Assembly (NCBI RefSeq): GCF_044324875.1
Contig: NZ_CP172185.1
Source of the DNA: Escherichia coli
GTDB lineage: Bacteria > Pseudomonadota > Gammaproteobacteria > Enterobacterales > Enterobacteriaceae
Length of the DNA: 64,000 nt
Direction: 5' to 3' (one strand)
Shown: one piece after another, positions 5,384 to 56,144 of the stretch
Layout: each line of letters starts with the position of its first letter
Numbering within the stretch: the first letter of the stretch is position 1
Notes under the pieces: model-generated
What the model was told of the DNA's origin: nothing
The model's database searches: none
The model's input: only the letters and a program-made list of their open reading frames with translations
Program-made: the position numbers and the translations under genes

Positions 5384-5575
<192 letters not shown>

Positions 5576-5581
5576 ATTGGA

Positions 5582-7495
5582 TTACTTACGACCTGCCAGC
5601 AGTTCCAGCACTTCATCCACGCTGGTGGTGTGTGCCAGACGCTCGATGACAGACTCATCATCCAGTGCATTGGTCAGGCTGGTGATAACCTGAATGTGCT
5701 CGTTGTTACGGGCAGCAATACCAATCACCAGACGGGCAATGTCATCTTCTTCTTCACCGAAGCGCACGCCTTCCGGGTACTGGCAGAACACCACGCCCGT
5801 TTTCAGTACGCGATCTTTCGCTTCAACCGTACCGTGCGGTACCGCGATGGACTCACCCAGATAAGTCGGGGTCAGTTTTTCACGATCCAGCATCGCCTGA
5901 ACGTATTCCGGCTCAACGTAACCGCCTTTCACCAGCTGCTCGCCAGCAAAACGAATCGCTTCTTCTTTGGTGGCCGCTTTGCGACCGAGGAAGATGTTCT
6001 CCGCGCCCAGTTTGAACAGGTTAGCACTGGAATCGTCAAAGCTGTCTTTCAGACTGTCTTTCACTTTCACTTCGTTTTCAGTATGGCGCTGGGCAGCAAC
6101 CAGACGTTCGGTCAGGCTGGTGTACAGGCCGCTGTCGAGGAAGTTGGTCAGCGAAATATGCTGTGCCTGCGGAACCTGGCGCATAGCGCGTTCGGTCAGG
6201 TCACGGTGAGTGATGACCAGGTCCACATCTGGCGGCAGGTTGTTGATCGCGCTGTTAGTAACAGAAATCTGCGACAGACCTGCATCCTGAATTTTCTTAC
6301 GCAGCACACCTGCGCCCATCGCACTGGAACCCATACCGGCATCACAGGCAACGATGATTTTACGTACGTGGCTCAGGTCGTTAGTCACATCGCCCGCAGA
6401 CAGCGGGGACGCACCTTTAGACTCAGCTTTCATGTCCTGCATACGACGAGTTGCTGCTTCAATATCATCTTCTTCTTTCACTTTGCTGGTTTTCAGCAGA
6501 ATGGCAGAGACAACGAAGGAGACAGCCATCGCCGCACACACACCCGCGATGTTAGCGAAATAAGCACCTTTTGGTGTCATCGCCAGTACAGCAAGGATAG
6601 AACCCGGAGATGCCGGAGAAACCAGACCACCGCCCAGGATAGTCAGCGTGAACACGCCAGTCATACCACCGAGGATAACGGCCAGAATCAGACGCGGATT
6701 CATCAGCACATACGGGAAGTAGATTTCGTGGATACCGCCCAGGAAGTGGATGATTGCCGCACCGCCCGCAGACTGTTTAGCGCTACCACGACCAAAGAAC
6801 ATGTACGCCAGCAGCACGCCCATACCCGGACCTGGGTTAGCTTCAATCAGGAAGAAGATGGATTTACCCAGTTCATGGGACTGCTGAATGCCCAGCGGCG
6901 AGAAGATACCGTGGTTAATGGCGTTGTTGAGGAACAGGATTTTCGCCGGTTCAACAAAGATAGACGCCAGCGGCAGCATGTCATGGACAACCATGAAGTT
7001 AACGCCCGCAGCCAGCATTTTGGACAGGGCTTCAACAATCGGGCCAATGCCGAGGAATGCCAGAATAGCGAGGATCATCCCGATGATGCCTGCGGAGAAG
7101 TTATTCACCAGCATCTCAAAACCGGATTTGATCTTACCGTCTACCCAGCGGTCGAAGTGCTTAATGCACCAGCCACCCAGCGGACCTGCAATCATAGAAC
7201 CGAGGAACATCGGCATGTCTGCGCCGACGATAACGCCCATGGTGGTAATGGCACCGACTACGCCGCCACGTTCGCCGCCTACCAGCTTACCACCGGTATA
7301 ACCGATCAGCAGCGGCAGGAGATAAGTGATCATCGGCCCGACCAGCTTCGCCAGCGTTTCGTTCGGTAACCACCCTGTTGGAATAAATAACGCGGTGATG
7401 ATACCCCACGCGATAAACGCGCCGATATTTGGCATCACCATGTTGCTGAGGAAACGACCAAAGCTTTGCACTTTGATCTTAATATCGGATGACAT
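5582..7495 (-). CDS. mtlA: PTS mannitol-specific EIICBA component
   Basis: 637-aa ORF, MSSDIKIKVQSFGRFLSNMVMPNIGAF..., long membrane domain followed by EIIB and EIIA domains. Confidence 0.95.
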   Translation of the reverse strand: MSSDIKIKVQSFGRFLSNMVMPNIGAFIAWGIITALFIPTGWLPNETLAKLVGPMITYLLPLLIGYTGGKLVGGERGGVVGAITTMGVIVGADMPMFLGSMIAGPLGGWCIKHFDRWVDGKIKSGFEMLVNNFSAGIIGMILAILAFLGIGPIVEALSKMLAAGVNFMVVHDMLPLASIFVEPAKILFLNNAINHGIFSPLGIQQSHELGKSIFFLIEANPGPGMGVLLAYMFFGRGSAKQSAGGAAIIHFLGGIHEIYFPYVLMNPRLILAVILGGMTGVFTLTILGGGLVSPASPGSILAVLAMTPKGAYFANIAGVCAAMAVSFVVSAILLKTSKVKEEDDIEAATRRMQDMKAESKGASPLSAGDVTNDLSHVRKIIVACDAGMGSSAMGAGVLRKKIQDAGLSQISVTNSAINNLPPDVDLVITHRDLTERAMRQVPQAQHISLTNFLDSGLYTSLTERLVAAQRHTENEVKVKDSLKDSFDDSSANLFKLGAENIFLGRKAATKEEAIRFAGEQLVKGGYVEPEYVQAMLDREKLTPTYLGESIAVPHGTVEAKDRVLKTGVVFCQYPEGVRFGEEEDDIARLVIGIAARNNEHIQVITSLTNALDDESVIERLAHTTSVDEVLELLAGRK

Positions 7496-8031: not shown

Positions 8032-8394
8032 ATGTTTCTAAACTATTTCGCGTTGGGAGTGCTGATCTTCGTCTTTCTGGTGATTTTTTATGGAATCATC
8101 GCGATACATGACATCCCTTATCTGATTGCCAAAAAGCGCAACCACCCCCATGCCGACGCTATTCATACAGCGGGCTGGGTGAGCCTGTTTACTCTGCATG
8201 TTATCTGGCCGTTTCTGTGGATCTGGGCGACGCTCTATCAACCGGAGCGCGGCTGGGGCATGCAGTCACATGTTGCGTCGCAAGAGAAAGCGACTGACCC
8301 GGAAATCGCCGCACTTTCTGACCGAATTTCCCGGCTGGAGCACCAACTCGCCGCCGAGAAAAAGACTGACTATTCCACGTTCCCGGAGATCTAA
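8032..8394 (+). CDS. yibI: Small inner-membrane protein, DUF3302 family
   Basis: 120-aa [24 protein letters not shown] with N-terminal TM segment; GAGG-like SD upstream; paralog of yiaW at 17175. Confidence 0.85.
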
Positions 8395-8396
8395 AT

Positions 8397-9533
8397 ATGG
8401 ATCTATTGATTGTTTTAACTTACGTGGCGCTGGCGTGGGCGGTCTTTAAAATCTTCCGCATTCCGGTGAATCAGTGGACGCTGGCGACGGCGGCGCTGGG
8501 AGGCGTGTTTCTGGTGAGTGGTTTGATTTTGTTGATGAACTACAACCACCCTTACACTTTTACCGCGCAAAAGGCAGTGATAGCGATCCCCATCACGCCA
8601 CAGGTGACGGGAATTGTTACTGAAGTCACCGACAAAAATAATCAGCTTATTCAGAAGGGCGAGGTGCTTTTTAAGCTCGACCCGGTTCGTTACCAGGCGC
8701 GAGTTGACAGACTTCAGGCTGACCTGATGACGGCGACGCATAATATAAAGACGCTGCGCGCGCAGCTCACTGAAGCGCAGGCCAACACCACCCAGGTTTC
8801 AGCGGAGCGCGACCGTCTGTTTAAAAATTATCAACGTTACCTGAAAGGCAGCCAGGCGGCGGTGAATCCGTTCTCGGAACGTGACATCGACGATGCGCGG
8901 CAAAACTTCCTCGCGCAGGACGCGCTGGTGAAAGGCTCGGTGGCGGAGCAGGCGCAGATCCAGAGCCAGCTCGACAGTATGGTTAACGGCGAGCAATCGC
9001 AGATTGTGAGCTTAAGAGCGCAACTTACTGAAGCAAAATATAACCTTGAGCAGACTGTCATTCGCGCACCAAGCAATGGCTACGTTACTCAGGTACTGAT
9101 CCGCCCAGGTACATACGCAGCTGCCTTGCCGCTACGTCCGGTGATGGTTTTCATCCCCGAGCAAAAACGGCAAATTGTCGCCCAATTTCGGCAGAACTCG
9201 CTGTTACGTCTGAAACCCGGCGATGATGCGGAAGTGGTGTTTAACGCGCTACCTGGGCAGGTGTTCCACGGCAAACTGACCAGTATTTTACCTGTCGTGC
9301 CAGGCGGTTCGTATCAGGCGCAAGGGGTATTGCAATCATTAACGGTCGTGCCCGGCACGGACGGTGTGCTGGGAACCATTGAACTGGACCCCAACGATGA
9401 TATCGATGCCTTACCCGACGGCATCTACGCCCAGGTGGCGGTTTACTCCGACCATTTCAGCCATGTTTCGGTGATGCGAAAAGTGCTGCTAAGAATGACC
9501 AGCTGGATGCATTATCTTTATTTGGATCATTGA
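8397..9533 (+). CDS. yibH: HlyD-family membrane fusion protein (periplasmic adaptor)
   Basis: 378-aa ORF, N-terminal TM segment, long coiled-coil region (RLQADLMTA...), starts 3 bp after yibI; paralog of yiaV. Confidence 0.85.
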
Positions 9534-14883: not shown

Positions 14884-15083
14884 TCATCATTCCCCCAATG
14901 GCTGGCTAATTGTCAGCCATTTTTTAAACTATCTCAAAATTTGCGATTTTTGAGAGAGTTTTAGTTATCTCTGTAACCCTTGCCCGTAAATTCGTGATAG
15001 CCGTCGTAAAGCTGTTACCGACTGGCGAAGATTTCGCCAGCCACGTCTACCCTTGTTATACCTCACACCGCAAGGAGACGATC

Positions 15084-17174: not shown

Positions 17175-17498
17175 ATGTTCCTGGATTATTTTGCATTGGG
17201 AGTGCTTATTTTTGTATTTCTGGTGATATTCTATGGGATTATTATTTTACATGATGTTCCCTACCTGATTGCTAAAAAACGTAATCATCCACATGCCGAC
17301 GCCATTCATGTTGCTGGTTGGGTAAGTCTTTTTACGTTACATGTTATCTGGCCATTTTTGTGGATTTGGGCCACGCTTTACCGCCCGGAGCGGGGATGGG
17401 GAATGCAAAACCATGACTCCTCCGTTGTGCAACTACAACAGCGTATTGCCGGGCTGGAGAAACAGCTCGCCGACATCAAATCCTCTTCTGCCGAGTAA
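17175..17498 (+). CDS. yiaW: Small inner-membrane protein, DUF3302 family (yibI paralog)
   Basis: Track ORF starts at TTG 17145; likely true start ATG 17175 after gaggg SD; 107 aa [21 protein letters not shown]. Confidence 0.85.
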
Positions 17499-17503
17499 TA
17501 CTT

Positions 17504-18640
17504 ATGGATTTACTGATTATTTTAACCTATGTGGCTTTCGCATGGGCAATGTTTAAGATCTTCAAAATTCCTGTAAATAAATGGACCATTCCCACAGCGG
17601 CCCTGGGTGGCATATTTATTGTCAGCGGTTTAATTCTGTTAATGAACTATAACCATCCGTATACCTTTAAAGCGCAAAAAGCGGTTATTTCTATTCCTGT
17701 TGTCCCACAGGTGACAGGCGTGGTGATCGAAGTGACGGACAAGAAAAATACGCTGATTAAAAAAGGTGAGGTGCTATTTCGACTGGACCCGACGCGTTAT
17801 CAGGCGCGGGTGGATCGGCTGATGGCGGATATCGTTACCGCAGAACATAAACAGCGGGCGTTGGGCGCAGAGTTAGATGAGATGGCGGCGAATACTCAGC
17901 AGGCAAAGGCCACGCGGGATAAATTCGCTAAAGAGTATCAGCGTTACGCACGCGGCAGTCAGGCGAAAGTAAACCCGTTTTCAGAACGTGATATCGATGT
18001 GGCGCGGCAAAATTATCTGGCACAGGAAGCCTCCGTAAAATCAGCGGCGGCGGAACAAAAACAGATCCTGAGCCAGCTGGATAGCCTGGTGTTGGGTGAA
18101 CATTCTCAAATCGCCAGCCTGAAAGCACAGCTCGCGGAAGCAAAATATAACCTTGAGCAGACGATAGTGCGTGCGCCGAGCGATGGTTATGTGACCCAGG
18201 TACTGATTCGTCCGGGTACCTATGCCGCGTCGCTGCCGCTACGTCCGGTGATGGTGTTTATACCCGATCAGAAACGACAAATCGTGGCGCAGTTCCGTCA
18301 GAACTCCTTGCTGCGACTGGCTCCTGGCGACGATGCGGAAGTGGTGTTTAATGCTCTGCCAGGTAAGGTATTCAGCGGTAAGCTGGCAGCCATTAGTCCA
18401 GCCGTTCCCGGCGGAGCTTATCAGTCGACCGGCACCTTACAGACGTTAAACACAGCGCCGGGTTCAGATGGCGTTATCGCGACCATTGAACTGGATGAGC
18501 ATACTGATTTGAGCGCATTACCAGACGGTATTTACGCCCAGGTGGCGGTCTACTCTGATCATTTCAGCCATGTCTCGGTGATGCGCAAAGTACTGTTACG
18601 CATGACCAGCTGGGTGCATTACCTTTATCTCGATCATTAA
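17504..18640 (+). CDS. yiaV: HlyD-family membrane fusion protein (yibH paralog)
   Basis: 378-aa [23 protein letters not shown]..., same architecture as yibH. Confidence 0.85.
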
Positions 18641-31620: not shown

Positions 31621-32541
31621 TTAACGAGATTCATTCAGAGAGTGAATGCCGTTACGTAATATTTCGATGCGATGGTGCACATCAGCCGTCGCATTTATTT
31701 CCAGTAGCTTGATCCCAGCAAAATGCAATGTTGACGATTCTGCTACATTAAATAACTCGCGAACATGATCTGTGGTCATCAGGCTTTCTGCGCAGAATGG
31801 TGCAAACGGCGCGTGTAAATCCTGCCATTCTCCGTATGCTCCGTTTAGCGTCGTACCAGAGAACATCAACGCGCCGAGTTTTCCGGCTTGTTTCGCCATT
31901 TGGGTATGGGTCAGCGGCAACGCTGTATTGCGCCCTTCAATAGCGGAGCGCGCCCAGTTTATACAGATGCTGATGTCATAATCGGCAATAACTTCCAGCA
32001 CATTTTCTAAAGGCAAAAAGCCTTTGCGTGGAGAGGCAGATGTCATGGCGTCGCAGTGTTCCAGCACCAGTTTGCACGGCCAGTCCCAACTGGCGATTTC
32101 TTTTAACGAGCGGGCAAAAGCATCCGTCGCTTGTATAACATTAGGATTCGTTGCTAACGGTGCAGCCTGGATCTCCAGTGCGAGAACTTTATTGGCCTGC
32201 AATGAGTTGATTTTATTTAATAAGTGTCGATAGTACGCCACGCAGGCCTTGCGTTGTTCTTCATCGCTGGAGGCGAGACCAAAGCCGTTGTTTTCGCTGC
32301 GGCGACGCATGGTTTCCATCACTGCGGTGACGACAAATTTCCAGCTCTCTGGCGTATGACGGAGTAACCATTGATCGCCAAGAGGGTGGAAATTTTCCAG
32401 GCAGGGTTGTTCCAGACCGCGAATATCAGGGGTATCTGATAATTGTCGCCAGAATTCCTTCTCTTCCTCTTCACTTCTTTGATGAAAAGAAGGTGCACAG
32501 GGATACGCACCGATAATATAACCGGCATTATTCGCTTTCAT
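31621..32541 (-). CDS. Hypothetical protein (306 aa) embedded in the yiaK-sgbE operon; not a member of the recalled K-12 operon set
   Basis: Complete ORF co-oriented with the operon, 23 bp downstream of yiaL and 114 bp upstream of yiaM; no recognisable motif by eye. Confidence 0.65.
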
Positions 32542-34240: not shown

Positions 34241-35089
34241 ATGGGGAAAGAAGTGATGGGAAAAAAAGAGAACGAGATGGCGCAGGCAAAAGAGCGTCCA
34301 GCCGGAAGCCAGAGTCTGTTTCGCGGGTTGATGCTGATTGAGATTTTGAGCAACTATCCAAACGGTTGTCCGTTGGCGCATCTTTCGGAGCTGGCTGGTT
34401 TAAATAAGAGTACCGTCCATCGCTTATTGCAGGGATTACAGTCCTGCGGCTATGTGACCACCGCGCCCGCCGCAGGGAGTTACCGCCTGACTACCAAATT
34501 CATTGCCGTCGGGCAGAAGGCGCTGTCTTCGCTGAATATCATTCATATCGCCGCTCCGCATCTTGAGGCACTGAACATCGCCACTGGTGAAACCATTAAC
34601 TTCTCCAGCCGCGAAGACGATCACGCTATTTTGATTTATAAGCTGGAACCCACAACCGGGATGCTGCGAACTCGTGCCTATATAGGCCAGCATATGCCGC
34701 TCTACTGTTCCGCAATGGGCAAGATCTACATGGCGTTTGGTCACCCGGACTACGTGAAGTCATACTGGGAAAGCCATCAGCAAGAGATCCAGCCGTTAAC
34801 CCGCAATACCATTACCGAGCTGCCTGCGATGTTCGACGAACTGGCGCACATTCGTGAAAGCGGAGCGGCGATGGACAGAGAAGAAAACGAACTCGGCGTC
34901 TCCTGTATTGCTGTTCCGGTGTTTGATATTCATGGGCGGGTGCCGTACGCCGTGTCGATTTCTCTTTCGACATCACGTCTGAAACAGGTGGGGGAGAAAA
35001 ATCTCCTGAAACCACTGCGTGAAACCGCGCAGGCTATTTCTAATGAACTGGGATTTACTGTCAGGGACGACCAGGGCGCGATCACATAA
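34241..35089 (+). CDS. yiaJ: IclR-family transcriptional repressor
   Basis: 282-aa ORF, N-terminal HTH (LSELAGLNKSTVHRLLQGL), divergent from yiaK. Confidence 0.9.
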   Translation: MGKEVMGKKENEMAQAKERPAGSQSLFRGLMLIEILSNYPNGCPLAHLSELAGLNKSTVHRLLQGLQSCGYVTTAPAAGSYRLTTKFIAVGQKALSSLNIIHIAAPHLEALNIATGETINFSSREDDHAILIYKLEPTTGMLRTRAYIGQHMPLYCSAMGKIYMAFGHPDYVKSYWESHQQEIQPLTRNTITELPAMFDELAHIRESGAAMDREENELGVSCIAVPVFDIHGRVPYAVSISLSTSRLKQVGEKNLLKPLRETAQAISNELGFTVRDDQGAIT

Positions 35090-35184
35090 CGCTTTAGACA
35101 AGTGCCAAAACTTTAACATTTCCTTCGTTGGATCAAAGCAGTAGAGACGCGCTCTCTGGCACTCTGCTGTTTTAGTGCAAAGGA

Positions 35185-35675
35185 GTGATCATGAACCGGT
35201 TTATTATTGCGGATGCGACGAAATGTATCGGTTGCCGTACCTGTGAAGTGGCTTGCGCAGTGTCGCATCAGGAGAATCAGGATTGCGCTGCGTTGTCACC
35301 AGACGAGTTTATTTCCCGTATTCGTGTTATTAAAGACCACAGCTGGACCACGGCTGGACCACGGCTGTAGCCTGCCATCAATGTGAAGATGCACCGTGCG
35401 CGAATGTCTGCCCTGTTGACGCGATAAGCCGCGAACATGGGCATATTTTCGTTGAACAATCACGTTGCATTGGCTGTAAAAGCTGTATGCTGGCTTGCCC
35501 GTTTGGTGCGATGGAGGTCGTTTCTTCGCGCAAAAAGGCGAGGGCGATTAAGTGCGATCTGTGCTGGCATCGGGCGACGGGACCGGCCTGTGTTGAAGCC
35601 TGCCCGACAAAGGCGTTGCAGTGCATGGATGTCGAGAAAGTGCAGCGACATCGGCTACGGCAGCAGCCTGTTTGA
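35185..35675 (+). pseudogene. ysaA: 4Fe-4S ferredoxin-type protein YsaA, interrupted by a frameshift
   Basis: Track ORFs 35185-35370 and 35487-35675 both carry CxxCxxCxxxCP ferredoxin motifs; an 11-bp unit ctggaccacgg is tandemly duplicated at 35343-35364, and removing one copy restores a single ~159-aa frame. Confidence 0.6.
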
Positions 35676-35723
35676 AACGTTTTTCCGGCGTTTCTCAACG
35701 CAGGGATAGTGCGCTTTGTTTAT

Positions 35724-35822
35724 GCCGGATGCGGCTAAAACGCCTTATCCGGCCTACAAATTCTACCAAATTCAATATATTGCAGAAATCATGTAGGCCT
35801 GATAAGCGTAGCGCATCAGGCA
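35724..35822. repeat. REP-type palindromic elements between ysaA and avtA
   Basis: gccggatgcggctaaaacgccttatccggcctac ... gtaggcctgataagcgtagcgcatcaggc. Confidence 0.6.
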
Positions 35823-35826
35823 ATTT

Positions 35827-37080
35827 TTAGTGACTTTCAGCCCAGGCTCTTTCTATCTCTTCTGCCAGAATCTTCACACCCGCCTCAATTTTCTCCGGCT
35901 CCGGCACGTAGTTCATGCGCATACATTGATGTGTATGTGGCCACGGTTTATCCAGCCCTGGGAAGAAGTTGTGCCCCGGCACCATCAGCACGCCCCGTGC
36001 TTTCAGGCGCTGGTAGAGCTGCTCGGTCGTAATTGGCAAATCCTTAAACCATAGCCAGAGGAAAATGGCTCCTTCGGGTTTATGAATCAGGCAGCGATCT
36101 TCCGGTAAATAGCGGCGAATGATAGCGATAGTTTCCTGAACACGCTGGTAGTAAAACGGTTTGATGACTGTTTCAGACAGGCGCAGCAGATCGTTACGCT
36201 TAATCATTTCACACATCATCGCCGGACCAATACCGCCAGGTGCCAGGCTGATAATGCCGTTCATATTGGTGATGGCGGTGATGATTTTTTCATTGGCGAT
36301 GATAATGCCGCAGCGGGAGCCAGGTAGCCCCAGCTTGGAAAGACTCATGCACAGTACGATATTCGGATTCCACAGCGGGCGCGCTTCGCTGAAGATGATA
36401 CCCGGGAACGGGACGCCATAAGCGTTATCAATCACCAGCGGAATGCCGTGTTGATTCGCCAGCGCGTCAAGCTTCAGCAACTCTTCGTCAGTAATCACAT
36501 TGCCTGTTGGATTCGTCGGCCGGGAGACGCAAATCATCCCGGTTTCTTCGCCAATATGCAGATGCTCAAAATCGACGTGGTATTTAAACTGGCCTTCCGG
36601 CAGCAGTTCAATATTCGGACGTGCAGAGACAAACAGATCTTCTTCCAGTCCGGCGTCAGCGTATCCAATGTATTCCGGTGCCAGCGGAAACAGCACTTTT
36701 TTGACCCGACCGTCGGCACGGCGTCCGGCGAACAGATTAAATAAGTAGAAAAACGCGCTCTGGCTGCCGTTTGTTAGTGCAATATTCTGTGGTTCGATAT
36801 CCCAACCCAACTTCTCGCGCAGCATTCCGGCAAGCAGTGTGAGTAGCTCCGTTTTCCCCTGTGGACCGTCGTAATTGCACAGTGCATCAGTCGCTTTGCC
36901 ACTTTCCAGCATGTCGGTCAGTAGCGTCTGGAAGTAGTCCTGCATTTCCGGGATCTGCGCTGGATTACCGCCGCCGAGCATAATCGCGCCAGGCGTGCGT
37001 AAACCGTCGTTCAGATCTTCCATCAGCAGCGTAATGCCGGAGTGGCGGGTAAATTTGTCACCAAAAAGGGAGAATGTCAT
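35827..37080 (-). CDS. avtA: Valine-pyruvate aminotransferase
   Basis: Track ORF trimmed to ATG 37078-37080 (MTFSLFGDKFTRHSG), 417 aa, aminotransferase class I PLP lysine region. Confidence 0.95.
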   Translation of the reverse strand: MTFSLFGDKFTRHSGITLLMEDLNDGLRTPGAIMLGGGNPAQIPEMQDYFQTLLTDMLESGKATDALCNYDGPQGKTELLTLLAGMLREKLGWDIEPQNIALTNGSQSAFFYLFNLFAGRRADGRVKKVLFPLAPEYIGYADAGLEEDLFVSARPNIELLPEGQFKYHVDFEHLHIGEETGMICVSRPTNPTGNVITDEELLKLDALANQHGIPLVIDNAYGVPFPGIIFSEARPLWNPNIVLCMSLSKLGLPGSRCGIIIANEKIITAITNMNGIISLAPGGIGPAMMCEMIKRNDLLRLSETVIKPFYYQRVQETIAIIRRYLPEDRCLIHKPEGAIFLWLWFKDLPITTEQLYQRLKARGVLMVPGHNFFPGLDKPWPHTHQCMRMNYVPEPEKIEAGVKILAEEIERAWAESH

Positions 37081-54421: not shown

Positions 54422-54673
54422 CGCTAAATAATAGAGCAACCTTTAATAATCTTCTGCTGAATAAAGATTGTCTCATATATTAATTTTATGAGATTTTTTT
54501 AGGATTATATCAAGGAGAAGAAACGAACTTATTAAGCTAGAATAGCCACGGGTGCTTGAGACTGTTTGTCTCAGGTATTCACCGAAAGGCAGACAGAGAA
54601 AAGCCCCACCTGACTATAAATCAAAGTGTACTGCACCCATTTTGTTGGACGATGAAATGGAATAGCCCCTGAT

Positions 54674-55195
54674 ATGTCAAAGCCAAAATACCCTTTTGAA
54701 AAGCGCCTTGAAGTCGTGAATCACTACTTCACTACTGATGATGGTTACAGGATCATCTCGGCACGTTTTGGTGTCCCCCGAACCCAGGTCAGGACATGGG
54801 TTGCCCTCTATGAAAAACATGGAGAAAAAGGTTTAATTCCCAAACCTAAAGGTGTTAGTGCTGATCCTGAGTTGCGTATTAAGGTCGTGAAAGCTGTGAT
54901 CGAGCAGCACATGTCCCTTAATCAGGCTGCTGCTCACTTTATGCTTGCTGGTAGTGGTTCTGTAGCCAGGTGGCTGAAGGTTTATGAAGAGCGCGGAGAA
55001 GCTGGTTTACGCGCGCTCAAGATTGGCACCAAAAGAAACATTGCAATATCAGTTGATCCAGAAAAAGCGGCATCAGCATTGGAGCTGTCAAAAGACCGAC
55101 GCATTGAGGATCTTGAAAGGCAAGTTCGATTTCTTGAAACGCGGCTTGTGTATCTAAAAAAGCTGAAAGCCTTAGCTCATCCCACGAAAAAGTGA
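54674..55195 (+). CDS. insJ: IS150 transposase OrfA (HTH)
   Basis: 173-aa ORF MSKPKYPFEKRLEVVNHYF...; slippery heptamer A-AAA-AAG at 55156-55162 in frame near its 3-prime end. Confidence 0.9.
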   Translation: MSKPKYPFEKRLEVVNHYFTTDDGYRIISARFGVPRTQVRTWVALYEKHGEKGLIPKPKGVSADPELRIKVVKAVIEQHMSLNQAAAHFMLAGSGSVARWLKVYEERGEAGLRALKIGTKRNIAISVDPEKAASALELSKDRRIEDLERQVRFLETRLVYLKKLKALAHPTKK

Positions 55196-56043
55196 AAGTA
55201 CTCAACGAGCTAAGGCAGTTTTATCCTCTTGATGAGCTTCTCAGGGCTGCGGAGATACCGCGCAGTACGTTTTATTACCATCTAAAGGCTCTCAGCAAGC
55301 CTGACAAGTATGCGGACGTTAAAAAGCGTATTGGTGAGATTTATCATGAGAATAGAGGCCGATACGGATACCGTAGGGTAACGCTGTCTCTTCATCGAGA
55401 AGGGAAACAGATTAACCATAAAGCTGTTCAGCGCCTGATGGGAACCCTCTCACTTAAGGCAGCGATTAAGGTCAAGCGATACCGCTCTTACAGAGGAGAG
55501 GTAGGGCAAACCGCCCCCAATGTTCTCCAAAGAGATTTCAAGGCTACGCGGCCAAACGAGAAGTGGGTTACCGATGTTACTGAATTTGCAGTCAATGGGC
55601 GCAAGCTGTATTTGTCTCCAGTAATAGATCTCTTCAACAACGAAGTTATTTCTTACAGCCTTTCGGAAAGACCAGTGATGAACATGGTCGAGAATATGCT
55701 CGATCAGGCATTCAAAAAGCTTAATCCTCACGAGCATCCTGTTCTGCACTCTGACCAGGGATGGCAGTATCGTATGAGAAGATATCAAAATATCCTTAAA
55801 GAATATGGTATTAAACAAAGCATGTCCAGAAAAGGCAATTGTCTGGATAATGCTGTGGTGGAGTGTTTCTTTGGAACCTTAAAATCGGAGTGTTTTTATC
55901 TTGATGAGTTCAGTAATATAAGCGAACTGAAGGATGCTGTTACGGAATATATTGAATACTACAACAGCAGAAGAATTAGCCTGAAATTAAAAGGTCTGAC
56001 TCCAATTGAATATCGGAATCAGACCTATATGCCTCGTGTTTAA
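55192..56043 (+). CDS. insK: IS150 transposase OrfB (DDE integrase core), expressed by -1 frameshift fusion with OrfA
   Basis: 283-aa ORF in the -1 frame relative to insJ; DDE/rve motifs ([19 protein letters not shown]). Confidence 0.9.
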
Positions 56044-56144
56044 CTGTCCAACTTTTTGGGGTCAGTACAAAGTGAGGCCCCTCTATGCATAGACACCATA
56101 AGGTTAGCCTCTTACTCGTTGGAAATCAACACAGGAGGCTGGGA

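Follow-up and report, generated by a model that had tools for sequence, protein, structure and literature searches.

An 11-bp tandem duplication that very probably inactivated ysaA in one lineage of Escherichia coli

In the 64,000-nucleotide stretch of Escherichia coli DNA analysed here (the window), the gene ysaA, which in its intact form encodes a ferredoxin-like protein with four cysteine-rich motifs, is interrupted by an exact 11-bp tandem duplication that shifts the reading frame and ends the product after 59 residues. From comparison of sequences and assemblies, we consider it very likely that this duplication is a genuine, recent and lineage-specific pseudogenization of ysaA. Below, we describe the lesion and the gene that it interrupts, the evidence that the duplication is real, its distribution, its probable effect on the protein and the way in which it may have arisen.

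Structure of the interrupted locus

The elements of the locus are listed here in the numbering of the window.

34241-35089, plus strand: yiaJ, IclR-family regulator, intact upstream neighbour
35181-35185, plus strand: AGGAG, Shine-Dalgarno-like, 5 nt upstream of ATG 35191 (sequence read)
35191-35675, plus strand: ysaA, probable pseudogene of a HydN/HycB-type ferredoxin-like protein with four Cys motifs (megablast, synteny, repaired translation, Pfam Fer4)
35335-35367, plus strand: period-11 tract of three copies (Tandem Repeats Finder, alignment with ST2747 and GF43, BLAST gap list)
35335-35345, plus strand: GACCACAGCTG, ancestral imperfect copy
35346-35356, plus strand: GACCACGGCTG, perfect copy
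35357-35367, plus strand: GACCACGGCTG, perfect copy
35343-35364, plus strand: two perfect 11-mers, CTGGACCACGG twice, in the phasing of the first-pass annotation
35368-35370, plus strand: premature TAG stop from the frameshift (sequence; product on record as SRB15941.1)
35487-35675, plus strand: downstream ORF, corresponding to YsaA residues 96-157 (ORF list)
35827-37080, minus strand: avtA, valine-pyruvate transaminase, intact convergent downstream neighbour

Direct reading of the plus strand places CTGGACCACGG as a tandem pair at 35343-35353 and 35354-35364, and the 11-mer occurs nowhere else in the window. The 22-mer formed by the two units is found once in the window and in none of 100 dinucleotide-preserving shuffles. 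Tandem Repeats Finder reports a period-11 array of 3.0 copies at 35335-35367 with 95% matches, inside which the perfect period-11 tract runs from 35342 to 35367. Because the tract is perfect over this range, the 11 inserted bases can be phased anywhere inside it, and 35343-35364 is one valid phase; in the phase that we list, the insertion is one of the two perfect copies of GACCACGGCTG. The first-pass annotation of this DNA had proposed an 11-bp tandem duplication at 35343-35364, and the sequence, the 22-mer and 11-mer counts and the repeat finder all bear it out. Its two tandem copies are there, but a third, imperfect copy, GACCACAGCTG, had gone unmentioned.

Across the duplication the window reads ...AAAGACCACAGCTGGACCACGGCTGGACCACGGCTGTAGCC..., and the second CTGGACCACGG is followed by CTG TAG. 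The duplicated length of 11 bp is indivisible by 3, and the +11 shift brings the TAG at 35368-35370 into frame four codons past the junction, in agreement with the earlier attribution of this stop to the duplication.

The gene measures 485 nt here, compared with 474 nt in intact alleles, and its coding sequence is divided between the ORFs 35185-35370 (61 aa from a GTG) and 35487-35675 (62 aa), both present as previously listed. Removal of one 11-mer yields 480 nt and 159 aa when counted from GTG 35185, and 474 nt and 157 aa when counted from ATG 35191. Fusion of the two ORFs by removal of one copy, as first suggested, is thus reproduced; the length of about 159 aa then given for the fused frame is not retained, the native protein being 157 aa from ATG 35191. 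This ATG is likely to be the start, and not GTG 35185, because it is preceded by the AGGAG at 35181-35185; the RefSeq annotation of the orthologues begins at the equivalent ATG.

Because ysaA stands alone and converges on avtA, the frameshift is not expected to have a polar effect. The AvtA of the window has 100% protein identity to that of GF43. A consensus scan of 35050-35860 for promoters and terminators found none. The ysaA-avtA intergenic region carries REP-like palindromic units at 35724-35824 (gccggatg...cgcatcaggc), and a REP-like copy about 80% similar to them is located at 5443-5544, at the 3' (low-coordinate) end of the minus-strand ORF 5582-7495 (637 aa), which is mtlA by megablast match.

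Identity of the gene

A megablast search with 35150-35720 gave matches in 5,423 of the 5,426 complete RefSeq E. coli genomes, and the CDS under every match is annotated 'ysaA: 4Fe-4S binding protein'. In both ST2747 and GF43 the gene is located between yiaJ and the convergent avtA, collinear with the window. The repaired protein is identical at 157 of 157 residues to WP_001296520.1, the allele of ST2747, which is a common and widespread YsaA allele; compared with the allele of GF43 its sole difference is at residue 51, Ser versus Thr. This residue also separates the intact alleles WP_001296520.1 (Ser51) and WP_001306607.1 (Thr51). At the DNA level, the window copy shares with intact YsaA alleles the yiaJ-avtA locus and departs from the ST2747 allele only by the 11-bp insertion and a single synonymous base; unlike them, it has the duplication after codon 55, which leaves a product of 59 aa.

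In the repaired frame, cysteines fall at positions 12/15/18/22, 58/61/66/70, 89/92/95/99 and 118/121/130/134. Pfam assigns Fer4_11 to residues 55-142 (E=8.9e-13), together with other Fer4/4Fe-4S families, and the closest solved chain is HycB of the formate hydrogenlyase complex (7z0s_B, E=1.6e-36). The description of the gene as a ferredoxin-like ysaA is therefore confirmed by megablast, synteny, Pfam and the identity over all 157 residues. The best NCBIfam match of the repaired protein is the HydN model NF007658, an equivalog (E=8e-65), at 217.7 bits, below the cut-off of 260. An identity as HydN was rejected on this score, and YsaA is a HydN paralogue.

YsaA (YiaI) is the closest paralogue of HydN in E. 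coli, with 62% identity, and interacts with FDH-H, HydN and HycB; deletion of ysaA reduces benzyl-viologen-linked FDH-H activity to 57% of the parental value and leaves FHL-dependent H2 production unchanged (Pinske 2018, PMC6004506). HydN and HycB, small subunits or partners of formate dehydrogenase H, have the same fold family and the same four Cys-rich motifs. They differ in that YsaA is not encoded with hydrogenase genes, and in that the window copy is broken.

Recurrence of the duplication in independent assemblies

The first-pass annotation had allowed for either a genuine mutation or an assembly artefact. The reality of the duplication rests on concordance between independent assemblies. 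Five loci were fetched, and all five contain the 30-base junction: L002 (GCA_958308375.1), L003 (Logan assembly SRR17262565), L005 and L006 (GCA_031910025.1) and L007 (GCA_900482385.1). The junction, in identical flanking DNA, occurs in four named public assemblies and in the independent assembly of one run, and identity to the window is 100% over 6,180 bases for L002, 3,628 for L003 and 5,849 for L005. The 59-aa product is itself on record in a collection of about 15 billion proteins, as SRB15941.1, 'electron transport protein YsaA [Escherichia coli]'; it is found on 89 contigs (NCBI and Logan), indexed in 92 blocks.

The surroundings of the lesion are intact. When aligned with ST2747 and GF43, the gene has an 11-column gap as its sole indel. 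A 40-kb alignment with GF43 contains eight gaps, among which the 11-base ysaA insertion is the only frame-breaking intragenic indel. The window has counterparts of 43 GF43 proteins; 42 of these are complete and stop-free, and only YsaA is split, with residues 1-55 and 49-157 in two frames. The integrity of these 42 neighbours argues against both a noisy assembly and a generally decaying genome. The identity of the repaired protein to a living allele indicates that the lesion is young and has been followed by no further decay.

Were the duplication an artefact of sequencing or assembly, the true genome would hold one 11-mer and an intact ysaA, and the rarity of the allele, present in no complete RefSeq genome, would fit. 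This reading is extremely unlikely, however, given that the same junction with identical flanks was deposited separately in four assemblies and assembled independently from the Logan run, that the truncated product is carried by so many contigs and that no other frame-breaking indel exists across the surrounding 40 kb; moreover, short-read assemblers do not typically err by introducing a perfect 11-bp duplication. Recurrence across assemblies, the 89 contigs, a repaired frame equal to WP_001296520.1 and the single unit in all 5,423 complete genomes with the gene decide for a genuine mutation.

Distribution and lineage

By megablast, none of the 5,426 complete RefSeq E. coli genomes has the duplication. 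All 5,423 that hold ysaA have a single copy of the unit, and this comparison with orthologous alleles yielded none with two copies. The best full-length identity is 97.9%, which corresponds to the 11-bp gap plus one mismatch. When an 81-base query spanning the junction was used, no complete genome gave a single uninterrupted match, and five records listed with 'full coverage' consist of two pieces spanning 70 record bases. A 30-mer of the exact junction had no match in GTDB species representatives and none in JGI metagenome contigs. The duplicated allele is rare and confined to isolate data.

The exact YiaJ protein of the window is indexed in 197 blocks. Of the 24 longest contigs with this protein, 22 have no ysaA call, two have the 59-aa product and none has the 157-aa protein; inspection of the sequence of one of the 22 contigs without a call revealed the duplication. 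Carriage is established by sequence at the five fetched loci and deduced from gene calls on the other contigs, and with this basis the duplication looks fixed in one clonal lineage. The carriers appear to be clonal, with identical flanks, which points to one mutational event and not to independent recurrences. The remaining truncated sequences in the 90% cluster either stop at contig ends or carry unrelated truncations, and none is truncated at the repeat.

No complete RefSeq genome is closely related to the lineage of the window; the best segment-wise megablast identities are 97.9-99.3%. The nearest genomes are T-HYM1 and C4 for 1-14 kb (99.3%), GF43 and N3 for 24-48 kb (97.9%) and strain 042-like genomes for 36-54.6 kb (99.0%). 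Because the nearest relatives change from segment to segment, the window may be a recombination mosaic.

Several other features were observed in the window. Its most diverged part is 25-34 kb, at 3-5% from the nearest complete genome. A 306-aa DUF4862 gene (31621-32541, minus strand) is located between yiaM and yiaL of the yia/sgb operon; GF43 has this gene too (94% protein identity), ST2747 lacks it, with yiaM directly preceding yiaL, and no NCBIfam model matches it. GF43 has a 1.3-kb Fic-family gene between yiaY and aldB, for which tblastn found no match in the window, where yiaY and aldB are nearly adjacent (14884-14993). A YiaW (DUF3302) paralogue with 74% protein identity (8032-8370) is located upstream of a 378-aa ORF (8397-9533), and this pair, 8032-9533, seems to duplicate the yiaW-yiaV-like pair at 17175-18640. 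Finally, a 1.44-kb segment between glyS and hokA (54629-56067), absent from GF43, contains two overlapping ORFs, 54674-55195 (173 aa) and 55192-56043 (283 aa), which match an IS3-family transposase model, the second with 348.7 bits. The segment looks like an IS150-like insertion beside hokA; the repeat finder, at the settings used, returned no terminal inverted repeats for it.

The truncated product

The product of the interrupted gene consists of 55 native residues followed by GPRL (MNRF...SWTTAGPRL). Four Cys-rich motifs (Cx2Cx2-8Cx3C) are not found together in this 59-aa polypeptide: it keeps only the first (CxxCxxCxxxC), and the other three are lost. Because only the first motif is retained, the window copy is best regarded as a probable pseudogene of the YsaA family and not as a functional member. 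Each cluster of a dicluster ferredoxin fold draws its ligands from two motifs, and a peptide with the first motif alone should therefore not hold a cluster. Most likely, the 59-aa product would be unable to assemble [4Fe-4S] clusters or to transfer electrons. With three of the four motifs gone, loss of ysaA function is likely.

The consequences for the cell may be small. As an accessory, partly HydN-redundant partner of FDH-H, YsaA would be expected to be lost at mild cost, and the mild published phenotype of the ysaA deletion fits a near-neutral loss (PMC6004506). We infer that the loss was near-neutral; the allele probably reached fixation in the clonal lineage through drift or hitch-hiking.

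A proposed slippage mechanism for the duplication

The ancestral state of the site, as aligned in ST2747, is AAAGACCACAGCTGGACCACGGCTGTAG. In this ancestral Ser51 (AGC) allele, the adjacent 11-mers GACCACAGCTG and GACCACGGCTG match at 10 of 11 positions, differing at a single base, whereas in the commoner Thr51 (ACA) allele the corresponding pair, GACCACACATG and GACCACGGCTG, matches at 8 of 11. From these sequences we infer that the duplication arose by backward replication slippage on the pre-existing 10/11 imperfect repeat. The nascent strand, having copied the second unit, would have re-paired one unit back with the complement of the first, where the 11 bp of pairing would contain just one G.T mismatch. 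Renewed copying of the second unit would then have given the order imperfect, perfect, perfect of the three-copy tract at 35335-35367. Given 8/11 in Thr51 against 10/11 in Ser51, the Ser51 background would be the more slippage-prone of the two.

The event has much in common with other slipped-strand frameshift pseudogenes of clonal enterobacterial lineages, in which, likewise, a short exact tandem duplication on pre-existing microhomology, with a length indivisible by 3, introduces an early stop, the gene shows no additional decay and the change is fixed in a single clone. The sole particular here is the unusually good template repeat, 10/11, offered by the Ser51 (AGC) allele.

Could the interrupted gene still serve the cell?

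Two speculative roles can be imagined for the interrupted gene: a low-frequency reversible switch that toggles an accessory formate-electron route, or a 59-aa peptide, which retains the conserved HydN/HycB N-terminus, docking on FDH-H or modulating it. We regard either as very unlikely.

One alternative is that the 11-bp tract gains and loses units and so acts as a reversible on/off switch for ysaA expression. Like simple-sequence-repeat contingency loci, ysaA has an intragenic repeat tract in which the unit length shifts the frame; two perfect 11-mers and one imperfect one could in principle lose a unit and restore the frame, and a revertant would work, the repaired protein being undamaged. 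However, known contingency loci are long tracts of short units and not two or three 11-mers, whereas ysaA has only two perfect units and no copy-number polymorphism in the data sets searched. Predicted products of 0-, 3-, 4- and 5-copy tracts are absent from the collection of about 15 billion proteins, as are products of the duplication on Thr51 or Cys51 backgrounds. The copy number is the same in all fetched carrier loci, the 24 longest contigs with the YiaJ allele of the lineage give no intact ysaA call, and the 5,423 other genomes are uniformly single-copy. As no other copy-number variants were found, phase variation is unsupported, and we hold such a switch to be improbable in the extreme.

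Equally hard to credit is the proposal that ysaA remains functional through ribosomal frameshifting, through restart of translation or as two useful fragments of 59 aa and 62 aa, even though both fragments score on ferredoxin models, such as that of HydN (89 and 56 bits), and some pipelines annotate the N-terminal peptide as a gene. None of the orthologues has the frameshift, which leaves no conserved recoding site, and the junction (35350-35370) has no slippery heptamer. No Shine-Dalgarno-like sequence was read upstream of ATG 35487. The exact 62-aa sequence of the downstream ORF is absent from the collection of about 15 billion proteins, indicating that gene callers skip it, and this ORF is probably untranslated. 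Even if both fragments were made, residues 56-95 would be missing, and with them the second Cys motif and most of the third (cysteines 58, 61, 66, 70, 89, 92 and 95). Finally, PGAP-annotated assemblies give no protein at ysaA, which is consistent with a pseudogene call.

Discussion

The interrupted ysaA, which when intact encodes a dispensable accessory ferredoxin, is an ordinary and recent frameshift pseudogene specific to one lineage. Nothing about it is surprising or of a new kind, and its significance beyond annotation is small. The ORFs 35185-35370 and 35487-35675 are best annotated as a single ysaA pseudogene. For this E. coli lineage, which lacks a close complete RefSeq genome, the 11-bp duplication provides a clean clonal marker. 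The two backgrounds, Ser51 AGC with a 10/11 repeat and Thr51 ACA with 8/11, would offer a clear case of a synonymous-looking allele difference that alters mutability. Lastly, the lineage would be a natural ysaA knockout, which may be compared with laboratory deletion strains for the role of YsaA, beyond laboratory conditions, in formate metabolism.
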